Positions 3,289 to 23,889 of a stretch of 25,713 nucleotides of DNA are shown here, piece after piece (position 1 is the first letter of the stretch; every line of letters starts with the position of its first letter). The notes beneath the pieces are model-generated. The model searched no databases and was not told the DNA's origin. It saw nothing but the letters and a program-made list of their open reading frames with translations. The stretch lies in IMG/VR virus record IMGVR_UViG_3300029877_000014; one strand, written 5' to 3'. Position numbers and translations under genes: made by a program. This DNA is from a virus (taxonomy: Duplodnaviria; Heunggongvirae; Uroviricota; Caudoviricetes).

Positions 3289-6200
3289 TTAGCCACTTAA
3301 CATTCCCCCATCACGTCGCATATTTAACAGATTGCCCTGCACCCGCTGATCAACCATCCCCATAAGTGCTTTTATTGCCTGAGGGCCAATCTCTCCATTC
3401 TGGCCGTCATTTTGAATAGTGATTTGGTATACAGGGGCATAGGTAATATCTCCGCCTCCATTACCACTTTTACTATTAATAGCTCTGACACCAAGAGAAC
3501 CATCGGATGTTCGTGTTAATGGCATAATGGCTTCCGGACCAGCCTCACCAAAAACACCAGCCCCTTTTGCAAAAGCAAAAAATTGCGGGGAATCATAAAT
3601 ACCGTTCGAATACGTGTTCAATGACGGAGACTCATAAACACCGCCCTTTGCATTCGGAATAAATTTACTAATAGCACTCCCGATAGTTCCTAAAATCCCC
3701 CCCGAAGAACTGTTACTAATGCTGTCGAAAATCCCAGTAATTGAAGCCTTTAATGCTATTCGACTAAGATCCGAAATCACGGAAGTAGCGAAAGAACGAA
3801 AATTTGCCTTGCCTGTCGTGACAAAATCACCCAGCGCATCGGTCATTCCATCAAACATCTGAGTCGTGGTTGATTTTATCTGCTCACTGATATCCTTAGT
3901 GTCATCCAGCCAGTTATTGAATCCCTGGGAGGCACCACTAACCCAGTCTCCTGCCTGAATATCGAGCTGCTCGTTTTTCTGTCTGACAATTTCTTTTTCT
4001 CGTTCCAGAGCATCATTCAGAGCCTGCATTTTCTCCTGAAAAACATGATTTGACATCCCACGGGATTTATCTGCATAGTCACGTTCAAGTTGCAGACGCT
4101 GATTGTTATATTCACGTTCAATCCGCAGTAATTCCTGCTGGCGTTGCTGATTTTTATCGCCAACCCCATAACCAGCAATCTGAATATCATACCCCTGTTG
4201 ACGATTATCAATCGAAGCCTGCAATAAATCACGCCATGCAGCTATTTCGGCGGATTCCTTGATTAGCCTGTTATTTTTTTCAATCGCAACATTTTTCTCC
4301 ATCAACGCGGTTATTTCTTCCCGGTGTAAGAGAAGCGATTTCTGATCCTGGGTTAATTTCGATGACGGTCGTGACTCCAGGTCGGCAATCTGCTGACGCC
4401 ACTTAACCAGTTCCTGTTCAGAGGAACTTAATTTAACGGTTAATTCAGTTTGTGAACTTAGTAACGCATTCTGTTGATTCAGATGATCAATCATTCGTTG
4501 GGCAGCATCATCCGAATAACCTTTCGCCTTTGGTTGCTTTGGATCTTTATAACGCTCATTTATTTGAGCGATAAAATTATTATATTCTTCCTTTGAATAC
4601 TGACTCTTTAGCTTTTCCAGTTTTGCAAGTTCACTAGCTCTCTGCTGCTCCCGGGTCTGATATTGTTTTGAAAAGGCATCTGCTCTCTGTCTGAGTTCAA
4701 TTCCTTCCTGTTGTCGCTTGTTGTAATCGTTTATTGATGAATTTAGGACGTCCTGAGCAATTTTTTCTGCTTGAAGTACGCCCAATTGCTGCTTTAATCG
4801 TGCCAGCCTTTTATTTTGAGCTCCGCCATCTCCAATGCCACCTAACCCGAAAACTCCGGGTCGGGTATTTTTTTCTATTTCATCAATTTGACGGAGAACA
4901 TCTGAGATTTTTTGATCAAGGGAGGCCTCACGGCCAATGTCCAGCATGGAATCCCATGCCCATTTTGCGGAGTCTGCGACAGCTTTCCATGCAGTCTCAA
5001 GATAACCAAGATTTTCTTTAATCTGGTTGGTGCGCTGGATCATTGAGGATGAGTATGCTTCTGTCGCAATGCGGGCGGCCTCCTGCTGGTTCCCTTCATC
5101 CTGTAGCGCCTTAATCTGGTTATAAGTCGCAATTGTCAGAAAATGGTACTGATCATTAAGTTTTGATATGGCACTGACAGGATCCTTTGCAATTTCATTG
5201 AAGTCATTAACCAGTTGTTCGGTTGATATTCCTGTTACTTCGCTCGTTTTTACTATCGCTGTCGTCACTTGCTCCAGCGAACTGCTCGCTACCTTTCCCG
5301 AACGCACAAGCTGGTTTAATACTGCCGCCGCAGCGCCAGTTGTCGAATCAGCCGCATTCCCGGCACGTTGAGCTATATCGGCCAATTGCCCGCTGGTTGT
5401 CCCCAACTGATTTCCGGTAAGAATAAGAGATTTATTAAATTCGTCCTGCTCCTGAGAGCCTTTATAGTAAGCCAGCCCTAAGACGCCAACGGCTGCTGCG
5501 GCCAGGGTAAAAGGATTAATTAATCCCAGCACATAAGAACCAACACCTTTGATCGCCGGGCCAATCCCACCGAACATATCTTTTAGCTGGCCGCCCTGCT
5601 GCATTAACACCATAAAAGGCGACTGACCAGTGGACAACCCAACAACAATATCCGTCATTTGTGCAGGCAACATGCGCATAGCAAAAGCCGTTTGTTTTGC
5701 CGACATTCCGGTTTTGCTTAATTGAGATTGAGTAACCTCAAGCTCACTCCGCATAGCACGAAGTTTTCCAGAAAGTTCCTCATACATTTCAGGAGAGAGC
5801 ATCCCCTTAGCTTTTGCTTCATTGAGCTGTTTCTGTTGTTCTACCAGACGATTAAAAGCAGTTCCGACAGGGTCAAGTTGAGCAATCAGACGTTGCAAAG
5901 CAGCAACCTGTTCATCATGCGCTTTTGCTGCTTCTCGCTCTGCCTGAGCCTCTCCGGTAAGCTCTCGCCGTGTTTCCTGTATTTTTCGGCTATAATTCTC
6001 AAACTGAGAACCATTTATTTTCCCGGATGCAAACGCAGCATTAAGTTCATCCTGCTGTTGTTCAAGATTTCTTAGCGCCGCAGCCAGAGGGTCGATCTTG
6101 TCCAGCATTCTTTGAAAGGCCTGAGCCTGCGCTTCCTGCTGGGCGGCAGCAAGTTTTCCGGCCTTCTCGGCTTCTCTCTGCGCTTGCGCAACCCCGCTCA

Positions 6201-6522
6201 ATTCCTCTGTGGTTTCATTAAGTTTACGGACAAGAAATTCATATTCTTCTTTATCAATAAGCCCTTTATCGAAAAATTTCTTTAATTCAGAATAGCGTCG
6301 ACCGACAGTATCAATTGCGGCACCAACTGGATCAATAGCTGCTTTTAATTTTGCGAGCGCGTTCTTCTCATCTTCTGTTGCCTTAGTCACTTTCCCTGCG
6401 CTATTTGCAGCAGTTTCCCCGGCCTGCGTCATTTTGACTAATGAGGAGGTCAGATTGTCAGCATTATTTTTTGCTCCAGTGCTATCAATAATTATTGCGA
6501 GACGCGAGGTTTGCTCTGCCAT
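3289..6522 (-). CDS. Tail tape measure protein (1077 aa)
   Basis: Very long, Ala/Gln/Glu-rich coiled-coil ORF with a glycine-rich hydrophobic segment, directly upstream of M/L/K/I/J. RBS GGAG precedes the ATG at 6522. Confidence 0.85.
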
Positions 6523-6542
6523 TTATTAAAACTCCAGACAAC

Positions 6543-6565
6543 AAAAAGCCCACCGAAGTGGGTTT
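6543..6565 (-). terminator. Intrinsic-terminator-like hairpin (CCCAC-UUCG-GUGGG followed by CUUUUU) between the GT-type gene and the tape measure gene
   Basis: Minus strand reads aaacccac ttcg gtgggc ttttt gttg; read directly from the sequence. Confidence 0.45.
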
Positions 6566-6685
6566 CAGGCGACATAATAGTAGATATAGCGATTACGAGG
6601 CCACGCAATGCTTTTCTCCAGGAGCATCATCGATTTAATTAAAGACACCATCACATCTCTGTAACAGAGTGTACGTAATTAACAA

Positions 6686-7006
6686 CTACACACACTGATC
6701 CTGAAAATACTGGTCATCCAGTGCAAAGATCACTGCTTCAAACTCATCGCGCTCAATCAATACCGGATGAGTGGCTAAATATTCATTTATCTCTGTCAGA
6801 GATAAAGGCAAAGGCACCCCGGTCATTCCAGCATAACGTCGGGCACGGGATATTACCGAATAGGCGTACAACAATTCCTTAAGCACCGGGTCTATTTCTG
6901 GTTCCGGTATCGGTGGCAACCTGAGTTTTTCTCGCTTCCATCTTGCCTTTTCCCCCCTTTCTCCCCCGAACTCCGATAACCACCGCTGGGCGGCTATGGC
7001 TTTTTT
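6686..7006 (-). CDS. T-like extension of the tail assembly chaperone, reached by a -1 frameshift (GT-type fusion product)
   Basis: The -1 frame is open from the slippery site (KKAIAAQRWLSEFGGERGEKARWKREKLRLPPIPEPEIDPV...) to the stop at 6686. The track reports only 6686..6919 because it begins at an internal TTG. Confidence 0.6.
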   Translation of the reverse strand, partial: KKAIAAQRWLSEFGGERGEKARWKREKLRLPPIPEPEIDPVLKELLYAYSVISRARRYAGMTGVPLPLSLTEINEYLATHPVLIERDEFEAVIFALDDQYFQDQCV

Positions 7007-9646: not shown

Positions 9647-10041
9647 TATCCCCCCCTCACAACCCTGACTTGTGAGCGACTAAGTCCGTACGGTTTCAGC
9701 AGTGCTATCGCAAGCTGTAAATCGGGTTCAAGCAATGCAGTGCTGTTTGCTGGCAACTCAGAAAATGATTTCGATACACTGACCCCGTCAGCCGACACGG
9801 CTTTACTGATAACAACGCCAGAATCATTTTTCTGCTGAAACAACTTACCGAATGAGGCAATTCTGGCTGCATATGCTCCCGCAAGTTTTACCTCTTCCGG
9901 AATACGGGATGGGTTAATTTTCAGGTTGAAGCCATTAAGCCAGGCATTAGCCATTAAAACAGCTTTATTTTTAGCGTTCTCACTCGTCCAGGCGTTCCCA
10001 AACGCATTATCAACGTCATCACAGGTCACGTAAGTGATCAT
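9646..10041 (-). CDS. Head-tail connector protein (gp6-like position)
   Basis: 131-aa ORF downstream of the capsid gene region; assigned by synteny. Confidence 0.4.
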   Translation of the reverse strand: MITYVTCDDVDNAFGNAWTSENAKNKAVLMANAWLNGFNLKINPSRIPEEVKLAGAYAARIASFGKLFQQKNDSGVVISKAVSADGVSVSKSFSELPANSTALLEPDLQLAIALLKPYGLSRSQVRVVRGG

Positions 10042-10044
10042 GTG

Positions 10045-10221
10045 TTACTCCTGAGTTTTCCAGCCCATAGCCTTCCAGTTGTCAACTTCATCAGGATGAA
10101 CATTAGCGATAGTTGGTGCGCCGGGAAACATCTGATAATCGGTCACCATAACCACTAACTCAATTTGCGTTTTTTGTGCGGCTTCACGCTGTGCTCTTTG
10201 CTCTTTAGTTAATCCGGCCAT
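10045..10221 (-). CDS. Small hypothetical protein, 58 aa, not in the ORF track
   Basis: ATG at 10221 to TAA at 10045 translates to MAGLTKEQRAQREAAQKTQIELVVMVTDYQMFPGAPTIANVHPDEVDNWKAMGWKTQE. It fills the gap between the capsid gene and the connector gene, ending 3 nt before the next start. Confidence 0.35.
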   Translation of the reverse strand: MAGLTKEQRAQREAAQKTQIELVVMVTDYQMFPGAPTIANVHPDEVDNWKAMGWKTQE

Positions 10222-10230
10222 ATGCCCCCC

Positions 10231-10253
10231 ATTAAAAATGGGGCCGAAGCCCC
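10231..10253 (-). terminator. Terminator-like hairpin (GGGGC-UUCG-GCCCC followed by AUUUUUAAU) just after the major capsid gene
   Basis: Minus strand reads ggggc ttcg gcccc atttttaat, starting about 11 nt after the capsid stop. Confidence 0.45.
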
Positions 10254-10263
10254 GTTTGAATGT

Positions 10264-11403
10264 TTAACCAAGAATCAGACAACCATGTGCCGGCTTCACT
10301 GATGAAACACCCCATGCCAGTCCAACTTCATAGCGCACCTGGCGATACTGACGATACAGTGCAATCTGGAACGTAATCCCTGAAATCGGGTCCGTAACAT
10401 TCATTACATCATCAGCATTATCGCCACCTTCCGGCATTGCCGGAGTACGGGATGCCAGCAGAAACGCGTTGCGATCAAACGCCATATTTGCAGTAAAGGC
10501 CCCAACAACTGTGATGGCAGTATCATCGGCCAGATCCTGACGCAGTCCGGGCGCTGCAAGAGTAATCAGATTGCTGGTCGCTGCTGCCACAACATACTGA
10601 TTCGGATCACCAGCGAACGTAACAATCTGACCTGCAGAAATACTCCCCGAACCAGTATCAATGGAAATAAGAACATCGCCTTCTTTTTTCTCTCCATTCA
10701 CGAGATAACCAGTTGCAGCAACCTTTGGCGCTCGTTTCACACCTGCCGAACTGTGAATATTGAATCCCTCCAGACGCCCCAACACGCCCTCACGCAGTAG
10801 CTGTTCAGTGCCGGATTCATTCACTTTAAACAATACAGACTGTTTTCCGCGCAAATTAGCAATGGCAGTGGAGCCAAGCACCATCTGCAGATCGGTTGTC
10901 GGTGCGCCGTTATCCTCCAGAACCTGACGAGCCAGAGCAGCATCAGAAAGATCATCTTTAACACCAAACGGCGTTGTCCCTGCGGTTCCCACGGCGCGGG
11001 AAGCACCGAAATACAACGCACCAAGATCAGCCTCAACCTCGTTTGCAAGGGCGCGAAAAGCCTGCTTGAACTGATCAGCCAGAATGGTGTTGTAAGTCCC
11101 TGAAGGACCAAGAGCCAGTTGTTCTTCACCATTCCATTTAACCGGTGCCATTTTGGATTTAGTAATTTTTACATCAACAGTGCCAATATTTTGATCACCG
11201 GTATTCGGAGCTGACGGCCCCGGTACGATATCTTCGGTTTTCGCCTCAGGCGCAACTGGCGCGGTTACCGTCTGATCTTTTGCTGCGGCGTCAGCTTTTG
11301 CGTTTTTTGCTACCGCAGGGATAAAACCTACCTGCTCACGGGATACAACATCCAGGGCGGTATAAATAGTCGGGATCAACCCGGTCAGGGTATTTCCAGC
11401 CAT
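10264..11403 (-). CDS. Major capsid protein
   Basis: Large ORF after the scaffold gene. The track start at 11496 overlaps the scaffold stop; the ATG at 11403 (MAGNTLTGLIPT...) has an AAGGAA RBS and is the likelier start. Confidence 0.65.
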   Translation of the reverse strand: MAGNTLTGLIPTIYTALDVVSREQVGFIPAVAKNAKADAAAKDQTVTAPVAPEAKTEDIVPGPSAPNTGDQNIGTVDVKITKSKMAPVKWNGEEQLALGPSGTYNTILADQFKQAFRALANEVEADLGALYFGASRAVGTAGTTPFGVKDDLSDAALARQVLEDNGAPTTDLQMVLGSTAIANLRGKQSVLFKVNESGTEQLLREGVLGRLEGFNIHSSAGVKRAPKVAATGYLVNGEKKEGDVLISIDTGSGSISAGQIVTFAGDPNQYVVAAATSNLITLAAPGLRQDLADDTAITVVGAFTANMAFDRNAFLLASRTPAMPEGGDNADDVMNVTDPISGITFQIALYRQYRQVRYEVGLAWGVSSVKPAHGCLILG

Positions 11404-11501
11404 AATTAAATATTCCTTAAAAATTTGCGTAATTGTGAATAGATGGAGTAATGAGCTATCCAGCCCTGACACCAGCTCCCATCCGGAAGCTGACAAATGT
11501 G

Positions 11502-12266
11502 TTAATCAACGATTGTGATACCGTCTTTCAATGCGTTTTGCTTACCTGCAACATCCAGTGCATCAAAAGCAGAGCGTTTCATCGTTTTCTGACCAATATC
11601 ATGCTGTGTCGGACGGGAGCCGCCGCCATTGTTGCCACTGGCTTTCAGGATGTAGTCTTTCTGAGGGTAATTTTCGACAAGGAACTCCAGCGCCTCATCA
11701 AACTGCGCCAGTTCGCCAGGCTTCGCGCGGGAATAAATTTTGTTGCCGGAAGCGTCATAAGCAACGATCCTCCCTTCTTCCACTTTGAATGCCTGCCCGA
11801 AGCGTGATTGTAATAAATCTGCCGGGATCGCAATTTTATCGGCAATATATTTTGAACCCGCAAAACTACCGCCAATCATAGAATCGTAAAGCTGCTTCTC
11901 CAGCATCTGAGAGCGTTGCTTTTCTTCATCTAATTGCTGCTGAAAATTTTTCGTAATTTCTGCCTTAACCTGGTCAACCTGTCCCGCATCGAGCAGCTTT
12001 TTCTGGTCGATTTTTGACAGCATTTCCAGTGCCTCGATCGCCTTCTTCGGGTCTTCGATAGCGGCAAACTTAGCCAGTTTTTCCTCTGCAGCTTCTTTAG
12101 CCAGGCGATGATTTTTTGCCTCGCTATTAAGCTCTGTAATTTTTTTTGTCGCCAGCGGTGCATCGAAGCCAATTTCTTTACCATCGTCGTGCACATAAAC
12201 TGGCAGGCCAGCAGTATCAATTTCTGCGTATTGTTTTCCGTTAATCTCGACCGTTTTCAGTTTCAT
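11502..12266 (-). CDS. Scaffolding protein
   Basis: Charged, Lys/Glu/Ala-rich helical ORF between the head morphogenesis and capsid genes. Likely start is the ATG at 12266 (MKLKTVEINGK..., RBS AGGTA); the track's extension to 12338 would run through a terminator-like hairpin. Confidence 0.55.
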   Translation of the reverse strand: MKLKTVEINGKQYAEIDTAGLPVYVHDDGKEIGFDAPLATKKITELNSEAKNHRLAKEAAEEKLAKFAAIEDPKKAIEALEMLSKIDQKKLLDAGQVDQVKAEITKNFQQQLDEEKQRSQMLEKQLYDSMIGGSFAGSKYIADKIAIPADLLQSRFGQAFKVEEGRIVAYDASGNKIYSRAKPGELAQFDEALEFLVENYPQKDYILKASGNNGGGSRPTQHDIGQKTMKRSAFDALDVAGKQNALKDGITIVD

Positions 12267-12326
12267 ATTAGTACCTGGTTTAAGTCTTCCGACAGTTACG
12301 CTGCTCACCATCCGGATCGCAGCAAT

Positions 12327-12351
12327 AAAAAAGGCCACCCGAAGGTAGCCT
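12327..12351 (-). terminator. Terminator-like hairpin (GGCUACC-UUCG-GGUGGCC followed by UUUUUU) between the head morphogenesis and scaffold genes
   Basis: Minus strand reads aggctacc ttcg ggtggcc tttttt attgctg; stem has one mismatch. Confidence 0.5.
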
Positions 12352-12370
12352 GTTGTAATAAATGATTTAT

Positions 12371-13486
12371 TTAAATCCCTGCTTTTCTGAATACCTGTGC
12401 ATCACGCTCACGGAGCTGCTTCAGCGTCAGCCATTCGCCTTTATCGGTGTAAAATTCATCTGGCGACATACCACCATCCCGAATCAGCTTTGCTCGGGTT
12501 TCCCCCACAATCTGTTTTTGTCTGGTGTAAGGCTGACGCAAAAACCATTCCCTGTAGGTTGTATCTCCGGCCACCACGCCATCCATGCTGGCCCGCTCAG
12601 CCGGGGAAATATCGCGAACATCAATACCCAGTTCCTTCGCTGATTTCAGAATGAACGTTTCCGTTGAGCGGCAGCAGAAATGAATTTTTCCCGGCCCCTG
12701 CAAATAAGGCACGCTGTGACCTACAGGTTTATTATTCAGCGTATATTTGAGGCGATCCCTGATTCGACATTGTGGCGTAGTACGATTATCAAGCGTTGAT
12801 AACCATTGCTTACCCTTAATCAAATCATTATTCGCGCTGGCAAAACTCTCACGGGCAGTAGCAGCAAGATGTCCAACCGCTGTTTTTGCAATGCTGGCCG
12901 CATTAGCCCGGCTCATCTGCAATGCACCATCCTGAAATCCCTTACTGACATGTCCCCGAATTTTTCTTGCGATCTGCTCATTGGTATCCCCCAGCAAAAA
13001 ACCCTGACGCACTGTATTTGTTATGCGTCTGAGCCGATCCGCCTCAAGATCTGAGGCCCACTCACTGAGCAGTCGTCCCTGAAATGGTCGCGCCATTGCA
13101 GCGGCATAAAGTGCATCAGGAGAGATACCAACCAGAGGGTGAACATCAGCAACAAAATCAGGTAGCATAGAATCAAACAGACTTAACTGATAACCAGCCT
13201 CATAAATTGCCAGCTCGTTCAGCTCTCCGGAGAGACTGGTAAACATGCTGTTAATAGCAGTGCGGTTAACCTCTCTGACGCTCGCCAGAAGTGACTCCAG
13301 GCGCTTAACGGTAAAACTACCTGGATCGAGGCTGTCCAGTGCTATCAGCAGGCGAGCAGTAAGTTCCGCATCGCTGTCATTCAGTATTTTCACCATTCTG
13401 GCAGCCACGCCAGTGCTATAGCGGGATATCCAGACTGCATGAGCAATTGATTCATCACGCAGCCGTTCATTCACGGTTTGCATCAT
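12371..13486 (-). CDS. Head morphogenesis / minor capsid protein (Mu F / SPP1 gp7-like)
   Basis: 371-aa ORF directly downstream of the portal gene, overlapping it by 20 nt; assigned by position and the Cys/His-containing C-terminal region. Confidence 0.55.
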   Translation of the reverse strand: MMQTVNERLRDESIAHAVWISRYSTGVAARMVKILNDSDAELTARLLIALDSLDPGSFTVKRLESLLASVREVNRTAINSMFTSLSGELNELAIYEAGYQLSLFDSMLPDFVADVHPLVGISPDALYAAAMARPFQGRLLSEWASDLEADRLRRITNTVRQGFLLGDTNEQIARKIRGHVSKGFQDGALQMSRANAASIAKTAVGHLAATARESFASANNDLIKGKQWLSTLDNRTTPQCRIRDRLKYTLNNKPVGHSVPYLQGPGKIHFCCRSTETFILKSAKELGIDVRDISPAERASMDGVVAGDTTYREWFLRQPYTRQKQIVGETRAKLIRDGGMSPDEFYTDKGEWLTLKQLRERDAQVFRKAGI

Positions 13487-14873
13487 TGATTTCCATCAGC
13501 ATTACACTCTGATTTTTTAATTCATCGATCACTTCCTCTGGACGGGAATCCTGATCGATAAATTTCAACGCCTGCAACACCCGAATCGCATCAATCTGAC
13601 GTATATCACCGCCCTGACGCAATGACTGAACAGCCAGCGCGGAGGATGAGTCAAACACCTGGGCAGATACATCCAGTTCAGTGCGCACATCCACATTGCC
13701 ACCGCAACTCTCTCCGATCCATTCCGCCATTATCTGGAGAATATTATCGAGGGCATCTTCGAGGGAGTTCGCCATTGTATAAAGCGGCGAGTTTTCCTGC
13801 ATTCGCTCTTCATTAGTCTGATCAACAGATTTGGTGGATGTATTTTCAGCACGCAGAAGTTTAGCGCCGGCATGACGCATCTGATTTTCCAGCTTCTCAA
13901 GTGATGTTTCGCCAGATTCTATCGCTGCGCCACTATGTTCAACATATTCGAGGCCATTTTTTGTTCTGTCCTCAAAAATCGTAGCGGTGGATGCACCAAC
14001 CGTCAGTTCTTCATTCCTGTCCAGCCCGTAGGCCACCAGCAATGGAACGCGGGCAACATGAAGAATATTGTCCTGCTCGCTCTGGCTTTGCCAGTGCTTG
14101 ATATTCAGCAAGCCAAGATTAAGCAATGGCGGTGTACCACGCATAAATCCTGTTTTCTTCGTGTACAGTGTTACCAGAGGAATATCATCACGGCTGGTAT
14201 TCCATGACTCATGAAGCGTCCAGACAGATTCGCCATTAGTGCCTTCGCTACGTCGATAAATTTCAACTCGACGGGGCATAATATGGCGGATCTGCTCCAC
14301 CTTCTTCTGCCCGAAATCATCACCATCAATAATGATGACCTCTTTTATACGCAAATCAGTGAGAACAACTTTCCCTTTTTCAACTTTCGATTTCCATCCA
14401 ATAACCTGGCGTGGATTCAGCATCGTAACGTACGGACGACTACCGGCCGCGTTTTCATCGGCTTTTGTCCGAATCTCTTTCATATCCGTTCGTGGATAGT
14501 CCACCAGCGCATGTGCCACACCATACTGAAATGCGAGGCTGAAAAATTGCTGCGCCCACACATCCAGTCGGCTTCCCTCCATGTCGATATTTTCTGCATA
14601 TTCTCTGATTTTTGCCGGCGTTTCCTCACTCAATACTGTCGGCTCTGCAAATATGCGCCCAATATTTTGCTTGATGCTTTCTTCATACACAGGAAGTAGC
14701 GTAGCCACAGACAGGCGTTTTTTATAAGCGTCTTCATCTTCGTTAGGCCATTTTGGGAGATAATTTTCCCCCTGCCTGCGCATTTCAAGCGTACCGCCCA
14801 TCAGTGCGTCGTTAATATCCCACGCCTCCAGCATATCGTTATAGTCGAGGTTGGGTGTTGATATATCAGCCAT
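13467..14873 (-). CDS. Portal protein
   Basis: 468-aa ORF immediately downstream of the large terminase (3-nt gap); size and position are canonical. Confidence 0.7.
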   Translation of the reverse strand: MADISTPNLDYNDMLEAWDINDALMGGTLEMRRQGENYLPKWPNEDEDAYKKRLSVATLLPVYEESIKQNIGRIFAEPTVLSEETPAKIREYAENIDMEGSRLDVWAQQFFSLAFQYGVAHALVDYPRTDMKEIRTKADENAAGSRPYVTMLNPRQVIGWKSKVEKGKVVLTDLRIKEVIIIDGDDFGQKKVEQIRHIMPRRVEIYRRSEGTNGESVWTLHESWNTSRDDIPLVTLYTKKTGFMRGTPPLLNLGLLNIKHWQSQSEQDNILHVARVPLLVAYGLDRNEELTVGASTATIFEDRTKNGLEYVEHSGAAIESGETSLEKLENQMRHAGAKLLRAENTSTKSVDQTNEERMQENSPLYTMANSLEDALDNILQIMAEWIGESCGGNVDVRTELDVSAQVFDSSSALAVQSLRQGGDIRQIDAIRVLQALKFIDQDSRPEEVIDELKNQSVMLMEINDANRE

Positions 14874-22839: not shown

Positions 22840-22914
<75 letters not shown>

Positions 22915-22917
22915 ATA

Positions 22918-22993
<76 letters not shown>

Positions 22994-23346: not shown

Positions 23347-23889
23347 TCAAGCCGTTTTTTGAGCGAATGATTCTCGCATGGGAATGTATAGCGCATACTC
23401 AGCAACGGCCAACCAATTAGCAATTCGCTTTTCGCATGTGCTAAAACACCACTCTGGGTGTGCATCATTTAGCAATTCAGCCATTTTGCGTTTGGTCATC
23501 CCCCGCCCCTCATACCGTTGCCGAAGGACGCTAATCAATCCTGGATGCTCTGCCAGCACCTCACTTATGACCCGATCAATACATAACGCCTCTGCATCAG
23601 TACAATGCGCCAGCCAGCTCTTTTGCTTACCGTTAATCATATCCCGCAAAAAAGCCTCAAGTTCAGACTTGTTCAGACCTGCTTTTTTCATCCTCCGGAG
23701 CGCCTCGTTAATTGCCGTTTTTGTCAGCTTTTTAGAGGCCAACAACTGGTTGAACATATTCCCCGTCTTACCGCCGCCAATATACGACCAGCGCCCCCAC
23801 ATGCGCAGTTTTCCCTGAATCCAGACACTTTCCAGCGTGGTGAGACGAAGGTGTTCCCCGCTTTTGCCTGTATTTGTTGGGTAAATCAT
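23347..23889 (-). CDS. Q: Late-gene antitermination protein Q
   Basis: Start at ATG 23889 (MIYPTNTGKSGEHLRLTTLESVWIQGKLRMWGRW...) with ATGA overlap to the upstream gene; the track's start at 24009 is an upstream extension. Sits immediately before the tRNA/lysis region; Cys/His-containing C-terminal part. Confidence 0.7.
   Translation of the reverse strand: MIYPTNTGKSGEHLRLTTLESVWIQGKLRMWGRWSYIGGGKTGNMFNQLLASKKLTKTAINEALRRMKKAGLNKSELEAFLRDMINGKQKSWLAHCTDAEALCIDRVISEVLAEHPGLISVLRQRYEGRGMTKRKMAELLNDAHPEWCFSTCEKRIANWLAVAEYALYIPMRESFAQKTA

Follow-up and report, generated by a model that had tools for sequence, protein, structure and literature searches.

Background

Placing terminators inside operons that are under processive antitermination is an established way to suppress spurious transcription and grade expression (PMC8955417); terminators with short stems are bypassed under such antitermination, and resistance is seen with very long stems (PMC10325885). 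Here we examine a hairpin, H1 (12332-12351, minus strand), located between a head-morphogenesis gene and the scaffold gene in a 25,713-nt stretch of tailed-phage DNA (IMG/VR record IMGVR_UViG_3300029877_000014; 'the window' hereafter means this whole stretch), which represents the 25.7-kb late region of an intact Rac-type lambdoid prophage of Escherichia coli with all late genes on the minus strand. Like the Q late operon of lambda and the conAn operon of pLS20, the window contains several short-stem terminators in a long operon that starts with an antiterminator gene; the role proposed for them is to halt polymerases that began elsewhere than at the regulated promoter and to permit graded expression (PMC8955417, PMC10325885). 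The conAn conjugation operon differs in having more than 20 internal terminators, against about three in the ~17 kb of structural genes of the window, where read-through under Q and termination in its absence are predictions from sequence.

Hairpins downstream of the major capsid gene have been recorded in lambdoid phages (P22 gene 5, HK97 gene 5 and lambda gene E). In P22 (BK000583), GGGGC-UGCG-GCCCC-UUUCUUU lies 5 nt past the stop codon of gene 5 and is annotated as 'stem_loop; putative; similar in location to stem-loops in phage HK97 and phage lambda', and lambda carries (AU)GGCC-C-UUCG-G-GGCC(AU) after gene E. In both phages, the Shine-Dalgarno (SD) element of the next gene follows, as it does at a second hairpin of the window, H2, of which the P22 element is the counterpart. 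Because of the annotated P22 stem-loop and its lambda equivalent, H2 should be regarded as an already recognised feature. By contrast, neither P22 nor lambda has a counterpart of H1, which follows a Mu-F-like gene and precedes the scaffold gene (the portal-scaffold gap of P22 measures 13 nt), and H1 has a much stronger terminator design (8 bp, U6-7) than the post-capsid stem-loops of these two phages.

The loop of H1 is of a common kind. The extra-stable C(UUCG)G hairpins of T4 intercistronic regions and of E. coli terminators share the loop, the C-G closing pair and the intercistronic position and are tied to termination and RNA stability, and nothing about the loop is distinctive here; as members of a generic class, C(UUCG)G hairpins with a shared loop are weak evidence for a special system.

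Judged by its sequence features, H1 has the canonical design of an intrinsic terminator and is in that respect an ordinary case of a known kind of element. It is followed by a leader with two small GGAU-loop hairpins (the twin hairpins), a second copy of which precedes the coat gene. It is quite possible, if by no means assured, that H1 forms the upstream half of an uncatalogued cassette. The twin hairpin would then be a cis-regulatory RNA of a new kind, serving as operator for a dimeric protein that binds GGA loops and so setting the ratio of scaffold to coat.

A predicted terminator conserved ahead of the scaffold gene

A first-pass annotation of this DNA had placed a UUCG-loop, terminator-like hairpin within 12267-12370. 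The hairpin exists as described, on the minus strand, while the scaffold start proved to be one base off (ATG at 12266 and not 12267). Read along that strand, H1 consists of A 12351, GGCUACC 12350-12344, UUCG 12343-12340, GGUGGCC 12339-12333 and U6 12332-12327, followed by AU. The stem-loop A-GGCUACC/UUCG/GGUGGCC-U has 8 bp including one U.G pair (-13.2 kcal/mol), and the U-tract UUUUUUAU (12325-12332) shares its first U with the stem, where it pairs with A12351. H1 begins 19 nt past the stop codon (TAA, 12373-12371) of the head-morphogenesis gene, which encodes a Mu-F-like minor head protein (12371-13483, minus strand), and ~60 nt ahead of the scaffold ATG. Intrinsic terminators have G+C-rich stems of about 5–14 bp, loops of 3–8 nt and a U-tract of ~7–9 nt directly at the 3′ end of the stem; H1 has 8 bp, five of them G-C, a 4-nt loop and UUUUUUAU in that position, and it lies on the transcribed strand, downstream of a gene and outside coding sequence.

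Relatives were drawn from a coat-protein query of IMG/VR (80 loci, coat identity 82–100%) and from a coat alignment set of 51 loci from distinct species. Their genera include Escherichia, Citrobacter, Pantoea, Serratia, Providencia, Rahnella, Photorhabdus, Tatumella, Erwinia, Pectobacterium, Gilliamella, Sodalis and Tolumonas, with Cupriavidus, Pararobbsia, Janthinobacterium and Xanthobacter as the farthest (coat identity 48–52%). Coat-protein identities of 48–88% indicate that the relatives are not recent horizontal copies. A hairpin ending in U6-7AU was located just upstream of the scaffold leader in every examined relative with a DUF6651-type scaffold gene, the U6-7 and following AU being nearly invariant. 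The 49 distinct leaders contained 34 distinct hairpins at this site, mostly with stems of 7–9 bp (two were weak 4-bp calls), and the arms were exchanged in concert: GGCUACC/GGUGGCC, GGCUGCC/GGCGGCC, GGCUGCC/GGCAGC, GGUCAC/GUGACC, CCUGC/GCAGG and GACUCC/GGGGUC. Compensatory changes included A-U to G-C and U.G to U-A, and H1 is thus conserved in structure, not in sequence. In a further IMG/VR sample selected by a search pattern for the leader hairpins, in which the presence of the leader was hence preselected, a strict filter found the terminator in 58 of 100 distinct flanks, with loops mostly UCCG or UUCG. The H1-type terminator reaches the Cupriavidus, Pararobbsia and Janthinobacterium prophages, spanning Gamma- to Betaproteobacteria. 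Its functional form is the sense RNA, since the U.G pairs of the stem would be C.A mismatches on the other strand.

Other roles for the site were considered and rejected. A promoter between H1 and the scaffold ATG was dismissed, as no sigma-70-like promoter was predicted in 12267-12370 and inspection by hand revealed no conserved -35/-10 pair, the conserved positions being those of the hairpins. Bidirectional termination was set aside because the 5′ flank lacks a conserved A-tract, and ribosome-coupled attenuation because relatives differ in how far H1 lies from the stop codon of the gene before it, with gaps of anywhere between 0 and more than 20 nt. A covariance-model scan of 10000-12600 against Rfam 15 returned nothing with E < 1 (the best match over H1 was isrD, 15.9 bits, E = 8.5), and in the whole window only two tRNAs reached the gathering score.

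Some relatives (L065, 4166-5050; L103, upstream of 2142) carry one or two small open reading frames (ORFs) and a second terminator between the head-morphogenesis gene and H1. The extra terminator in these inserts reads GCGGCC-UUUUUUAU, resembling a moron-like insertion at a terminator junction.

UUCG loops and the other hairpins of the late operon

H1 had been grouped in the first-pass annotation with two further hairpins of the same design and interpreted as deliberate punctuation of the late operon rather than chance. An exhaustive scan of both strands of the whole window for UUCG hairpins (at least 5 bp, at least four G-C pairs, U-run) found three C(UUCG)G hairpins with a U-run (H1, H2 and H3), all near the positions originally named, all intergenic, and no other on either strand. 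Across 2000 dinucleotide shuffles, the mean number of such hairpins was 0.009 and the maximum was 1, none reaching three. Terminator-like hairpins were also not found at similar density inside coding regions: 8 of 11 strong coding-strand sites with any loop fell within the intergenic 11.7% of the window (binomial P = 4e-6). Folds of the whole spacers were not significantly more stable than shuffles (z = -1.75, -1.2 and -0.1), which is expected because the hairpins are short and the spacers longer. The position of all three hairpins on the coding strand follows from all late genes lying on the minus strand.

Together with conservation in the relatives, these counts speak against chance. The notion that these palindromes arose by chance, or were left behind as inert scars when modules recombined or morons inserted, has in its favour that terminator-adjacent junctions are preferred insertion points, as illustrated by the extra small gene and second terminator upstream of H1 in L065 and L103. 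It is effectively refuted by the shuffle statistics and by conservation, with positions kept across genera, and stems compensated, while the flanks diverge fully; we consider its probability negligible.

H2 (10232-10253, minus strand), with the structure GGGGC/UUCG/GCCCC + AUUUUUAA, is read as GGGGC-UUCG-GCCCC-AUUUUU from 10253 to 10232, with a 5-bp stem and a predicted stability of -9.6 kcal/mol. It lies 10 nt past the stop of the coat gene (11403-10264, P22_CoatProtein) and abuts the SD of a 58-codon gene (10221-10045), and so has the placement of the post-capsid stem-loops (~5–20 nt past the capsid stop, followed by the SD of the next gene), a class that H1 falls outside as it precedes the scaffold gene. 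H2 is near-verbatim across Enterobacterales, where its flanks are unalignable: the arms GGGGC/GCCCC were present in 38 and the UUCG loop in 37 of 53 distinct sequences. Variants had UACG, UGCG or CUCG loops or the compensated form GGGGA-UUCG-UCCCC, and relatives from Burkholderiales had other G+C-rich hairpins. The U-tract is degenerate in many relatives (CCCCUUUGUUUUUC, CCCCGCUUUACC), as it is in lambda and P22. In the allele of the window, the 3′ arm plus AUU (CCCCAUU) can alternatively pair with AAUGGGG, the G-rich SD of the 58-codon gene (10222-10245), so that folding of H2 would leave this SD free; the G6 SD is allele-specific, most relatives having GGAGG.

H3 (6541-6562, minus strand), CCCAC/UUCG/GUGGG + CUUUUUGU, is read as CCCAC-UUCG-GUGGG-CUUUUU from 6562 to 6541 and likewise has 5 bp (predicted -7.2 kcal/mol). 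It stands 26 nt ahead of the tape-measure ATG (6522), in a 163-nt spacer that begins after the chaperone frameshift product ending at 6686. This non-coding spacer (6523-6685, minus strand) is unusually long; in lambda, genes T and H overlap. The U-tracts of H2 and H3 (AUUUUUAA, CUUUUUGU) are weaker than that of H1. At the H3 site, the sequence of K-12 MG1655, AAACCCAC-UUCGCG-GUGGGUUU (predicted loop UCGC, -11.0 kcal/mol), was found in 22 of 42 related loci, and UUCGCG, with its 2-nt longer loop, in 24 of 42, two of them on a stem shorter than that of K-12; the cUUCGg of the window, 2 nt shorter, is a minority allele. Tail modules being mosaic, H3 is confined to close relatives, and divergent relatives have terminator-like hairpins of unrelated sequence after the tail-tube gene or before the tape-measure gene.

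Relative to the window, the cryptic Rac prophage of MG1655 has a single 11.56-kb deletion (window 18906 to 7345; NC_000913.3 1425620-1425630, L082 ~4630) that fuses the 5′ part of ynaK to ydaY. Lost with it are the genes for terminase, portal, head, neck and tail tube, and also H1 and H2, whereas H3 is retained. The idea that K-12 ynaK holds a fragment of the head-morphogenesis gene is wrong for MG1655.

A motif search across the prophage and its relatives recovered the H1 and H2 sites, with a UUCG loop that was not constant. H1 loops were UUCG in 11 and another UNCG in 6 of the 34 hairpins, with UCCG (4), UCAG, CCCG, CACG, UACG, UGCG, UUAG and others among those recorded. All three hairpins of the window have a UNCG loop with a C-G closing pair, and hairpins with other loops occur in the same late operon at 22481-22462, 19210-19187, 23267-23236 and, lacking a U-run, 7487-7461. 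Tuerk et al. in 1988 reportedly described C(UUCG)G hairpins, found in T4 intercistronic regions, as exceptionally stable, and the same authors and d'Aubenton Carafa et al. in 1990 are said to have found them favoured in E. coli and T4 terminators. A preference for UNCG is a general thermodynamic property of short terminator hairpins. In the limited literature searched, nothing usable was found on post-capsid-gene hairpins or on UUCG frequency in terminators.

Dedicated, sequence-coded punctuation, in which the loop itself is specifically recognised, would account for three cUUCGg hairpins in one operon where 0.009 are expected, and for the presence of cUUCGg at H2 in most relatives and also in lambda. 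This reading is highly improbable given that H1 loops vary widely on a kept stem and U-tract, that the UUCG of H3 is a minority allele arising from a 2-nt indel, that hairpins of the same operon have other loops, and that the UNCG preference is said to be generic thermodynamics. The UUCG loop is most likely no recognition code and would reflect thermodynamic optimisation of short hairpins; the near-fixed cUUCGg on the 5-bp stem of H2 fits such a need. What survives of the punctuation proposal is the arrangement (intergenic, coding-strand hairpins downstream of a Q-type gene, with H1 and H2 positions kept with compensation), while the shared UUCG design does not hold up as the mark of a dedicated system. 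The 'punctuation' reading was broadly right, and the UUCG commonality was over-interpreted.

A 27-nt hairpin at 7487-7461 (minus strand), CCCCCUGUGGU/ACUGC/ACUACAGGGGG, lies 17 nt past the tail-tube stop without a U-run (-19.5 kcal/mol) and is a candidate RNA-stability element more than a terminator. In the relatives, hairpins also follow the genes of abundant proteins (coat, tail tube). Observations of this kind bear on a purely post-transcriptional action, in which the hairpins would block 3′-5′ exonucleases and define stable mRNA segments after endonucleolytic cleavage, any termination being incidental. Such an action would suit this strong U-less hairpin, the placement after abundant-protein genes and the almost invariant stem and cUUCGg of H2 in spite of 5 bp and a degenerate U-tract, as well as the exceptional stability that C(UUCG)G hairpins are said to have (Tuerk et al. 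in 1988). It is harder to reconcile with H1, which follows the gene of a low-copy protein whose mRNA has no obvious need of stabilisation, and whose U6-7AU is as conserved as the stem; an exonuclease block requires no U-tract, and its conservation favours termination over such a block alone. As a full explanation we therefore think the post-transcriptional one unlikely, though it deserves serious weight.

Twin GGAU hairpins in the scaffold and coat leaders

The ~60 nt between H1 and the scaffold gene, treated in the first-pass annotation as plain spacer, turned out to be mostly filled by a conserved structured leader. Leader hairpin A (12299-12324, minus strand), (U)GCUGC-GAU-CC/GGAU/GG-UGA-GCAGC(G), has an outer stem of 5–6 bp and an inner stem of 2 bp, separated by a 3x3 internal loop, and is capped by a GGAU tetraloop. 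Leader hairpin B (12284-12293, minus strand) reads GUC/GGAA/GAC in the window and GGUC-GGAU-GACC in most relatives. An SD-like AGGU (12276-12273) and the ATG (12266-12264) of the DUF6651/phrog_206 scaffolding gene (12266-11502) complete the leader (12264-12276, minus strand). A covariance model, R1, built from scaffold leaders alone, found a second copy in the scaffold-to-coat spacer (11451-11497, minus strand), composed of CAGCUUCC/GGAU/GGGAGCUG (11492-11473) and GGGCU/GGAU/AGCUC (11466-11453). This coat-leader copy lay outside the training set and scored 33.9 bits (E = 1.2e-6), with nothing else credible in the window. The GGA-to-GGA spacing was 23 nt in both the scaffold and the coat pair, and TCCGGATGG occurs exactly twice in the window, at the two twin-hairpin sites.

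When 28 scaffold leaders were aligned with MAFFT, pairing was possible in 91.5% of cells, and changes on both sides were seen in 8 of 13 pairs. Shuffles failed to reach the observed values on four of five measures (0 of 500), the fifth, 'further standard pair types', being reached by 237 of 500; slid controls gave 30–57% pairing. Searching 65 loci (501 kb) with R1 produced 74 hits, all on the coding strand and only at scaffold and coat leaders, and no matches were found in lambda or P22. In the alignment of the R1 hits, which is fitted to the model, 95.4% of cells could pair and 11 of 13 pairs covaried. Loop A was GGAU in 54 of 55 distinct sequences, and loop B was GGAU in 50 and GGAA in 5 of the 55. 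Wobble pairs were abundant (column pair 3-29 was U.G in 49 of 55 and pair 4-28 G.U in 23 of 55), which shows that the twin structure is a sense RNA. A DNA palindrome, a double-stranded DNA protein site and an antisense element were accordingly rejected, G.U and U.G pairing in the sense RNA only and 74 of 74 hits lying on the coding strand.

The motif ranges from Enterobacterales to Burkholderiales and Xanthobacter (three proteobacterial classes; relatives L055-L131). A group of relatives carries three hairpins ahead of the scaffold gene and lacks any ahead of the coat gene. The final GGAU loop of L169 and L229 stands 6 nt before the AUG with no other SD, and this loop appears from its position to serve as the SD element. 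Rfam 15 contained no match to the twin hairpin, either at the gathering score or at E ≤ 10.

Loop A includes an AUG (CCGGAUGG; 12264-12310, minus strand) that shares the reading frame of the scaffold ORF solely in the E. coli allele. As a consequence, mechanical ORF calling extends the scaffold gene to a GTG at 12338, across the terminator, and this extension is not conserved. An upstream ORF starting in loop A was rejected: it would be a 15-codon extension in the E. coli allele and meets a stop after 8 codons in most relatives, and in the L055-L060 group the AUG is AUA, with the closing pair changed from C-G to U-A.

The closest described parallels are CsrA/RsmA sites, in which GGA is presented in hairpin loops; CsrB repeats read CAGGA(U/A/C)G and the SELEX consensus is RUACARGGAUGU (PMC7652899). 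The twin hairpins resemble them in exposing GGA in loops at two or more sites per leader, with an invariant GGA in two loops 23 nt apart that lie near or include the SD, and with a GGAUG string that matches the 3′ half of the consensus; a dimeric reader is plausible. H1 does not enter into this likeness. The twin hairpins differ in lacking the ANGGAN hexaloop on a stem of at most 4 bp with its ACA context, having instead C-G-closed GGAU tetraloops and a stem A of 8–10 bp. A further difference lies in the hosts: CsrA is less prevalent in Pseudomonadota outside the gamma class (PMC13443453), and the twin motif is also present in Cupriavidus, Janthinobacterium, Pararobbsia and Xanthobacter prophages of the Beta- and Alphaproteobacteria, where CsrA is less common. 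The put RNA of HK022, two tandem stem-loops that make polymerase terminator-resistant in cis, is similar in consisting of adjacent conserved hairpins in a lambdoid transcript near terminators. Unlike put, which lies upstream of the terminators it suppresses and near promoters, the twin motif is downstream of H1 and recurs before the coat gene; it is also smaller (~45 nt) and would appear to lack sequence similarity to put.

The twin hairpin is probably a protein-binding translational operator common to scaffold and coat. Its ligand could be a phage product, such as a scaffold protein regulating its own synthesis, or, in enterobacteria, host CsrA. Alternatively, the twin hairpin may be purely a 5′ stabiliser, or may act on polymerase in a put-like manner.

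A more integrated arrangement would have H1 and the twin hairpins as one cassette that isolates the scaffold-coat module, translation being under a GGA-loop-binding protein and H1 insulating the 5′ context of the leader. From Enterobacterales to Burkholderiales, terminator, U-tract and hairpin A indeed adjoin one another at 2–6 nt in essentially all relatives. The motif is moreover restricted to the coding strand ahead of the scaffold and coat genes, with 74 hits over 65 loci and no hit in either lambda or P22. We nevertheless judge this arrangement improbable: the coat-leader twin hairpin has no terminator ahead of it, which means that the motif needs none, elements downstream of a terminator cannot affect the termination decision, and the binding protein is purely putative.

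Possible role of H1 in late transcription

For H1 itself, we lean towards a long-kept intrinsic terminator at the junction between the packaging, portal and minor-head genes and the scaffold-coat genes, which would act as a Q-bypassable barrier and then as an mRNA boundary. RNA polymerase without Q modification, having started at spurious or cryptic promoters or having run on from morons that are expressed in the lysogen, such as trkG, would stop at H1 and, more weakly, at H2 and H3. Through the stop at H1, the scaffold and coat genes and those downstream of them would stay silent in a lysogen. Polymerase that carries Q and comes from the late promoter would pass all three hairpins. Since a promoter is neither predicted nor conserved in the stretch from H1 to the scaffold ATG, transcripts of scaffold and coat have to cross H1. 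The scheme agrees with the general logic of long operons under processive antitermination (PMC8955417) and with the finding that resistance to it is limited to unusually long stems (PMC10325885). In read-through RNA, the H1 hairpin would persist and could mark a processing or stability boundary. The U/A-rich stretch from H1 to leader hairpin A is a plausible RNase E site, and cleavage there would leave the upstream RNA ending in a 3′ hairpin and a scaffold-coat RNA bounded by the twin GGAU hairpins on the 5′ side and by H2 on the 3′ side. The operon would in this way fall into blocks that differ in protein demand, separated by H1, H2, H3 and the other intergenic hairpins. A stability or processing boundary is probably the more likely role of the minimal H2 and of the U-less tail-tube hairpin. 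H1 cannot, as an attenuator, set the level of the most highly expressed genes, which it precedes, and would instead serve as a gate or boundary.

A Q-type gene and a tR′-resembling site (22481-22462) upstream of the operon support the barrier proposal. The gene (23347-23889, minus strand) encodes a DUF1133 protein that belongs to the Q-family antiterminators by Pfam (Phage_antitermQ, 27.1 bits against a cut-off of 26). A number of points weigh on the other side. A strong terminator directly before the two most needed proteins is counter-intuitive, and could only be neutral or protective, never a cause of high expression. With stems of only 5 bp and imperfect U-tracts, H2 and H3 are minimal and might cause no termination whatever. 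Sampson et al. in 1988 reportedly attributed differences in lambda late-gene expression mainly to translation initiation on a roughly uniform transcript, which would leave such hairpins little quantitative effect on lytic transcription. Moreover, the Q function is assigned by Pfam alone, the late promoter is a candidate, and distant relatives may use other regulators. Finally, the supplement of a K-12 Term-seq study (PMC7815308), a strain without H1 and H2, lists no 3′ end at or near the H3 homologue.

Prophage and gene context

The 2.2 kb around H1 (window 11400-13600) is 100% identical to NZ_CP026723, and the head module of the window was found in 821 of 5426 complete E. coli genomes (~15%). 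Gene order in NZ_CP026723 starts with DUF1367, DUF1364, DUF1133, tRNA-Thr, tRNA-Gly, essD-rrrD-Rz, trkG, ynaK' and two small genes, continues with the small and large terminase subunits, the DUF4055 portal, the Mu-F-like minor head protein and the DUF6651 protein, and ends with the P22-type coat protein, neck genes, tail tube, ydaY, tape measure and tail tip. Pfam and PHROGs searches of the window identified head morphogenesis (phrog_241), scaffold (DUF6651/phrog_206), coat (P22_CoatProtein), tail tube and YdaY, the last as a tail assembly chaperone (phrog_313).

A terminator-like hairpin (23267-23236, minus strand) followed by tRNA-Thr and tRNA-Gly (22840-22993, minus strand) lies between the Q-like gene and the lysis genes. 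A candidate PR′/tR′ pair consists of a promoter-like site (22532-22503, minus strand) with a strong terminator within ~20 nt, leaving a very short leader; the terminator (22481-22462, minus strand) reads AACCGCCA/UAUU/UGGCGGUU + U8. The trkG moron (20754-19297, minus strand) has its own strong terminator at 19210-19187 (10-bp stem, -18.9 kcal/mol), which fits a need to keep lysogenic trkG transcription from the downstream structural genes.

In the tail region, the YdaY ORF (7353-6994, minus strand) has a -1 slippery heptamer, A_AAA_AAG, among its last codons (7000-7006). The -1 frame is open for ~105 codons to 6686 and takes in a 66-codon 'hypothetical protein'; the site corresponds to a programmed frameshift of the lambda G/GT type and is absent from the RefSeq annotation. 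The tape-measure ORF (3289-6522, minus strand) is intact in the window (1077 aa), and its equivalent in NZ_CP026723 (155323-158556) is annotated as a pseudogene with an internal stop.

Implications

As a terminator, H1 adds little beyond documenting internal terminators, predicted to be bypassable by Q, at conserved junctions in intact Rac-type prophages. In this prophage family, the 'hairpin after the coat gene' known from lambda, P22 and HK97 recurs almost base for base. Two points of interpretation are corrected: the shared UUCG loops should not be taken for a code, and a strong conserved terminator before the most expressed genes would act as a gate or boundary, not as an attenuator.

What is new, and more interesting than H1, is the compact and strongly covarying twin GGAU motif specific to the scaffold and coat genes. 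Post-transcriptional autoregulation of the P22 scaffold, via an unknown target, was described in the 1970s–1980s. The twin motif would offer a handle on the post-transcriptional balance of scaffold and coat in tailed phages, a question that has stood since that work.

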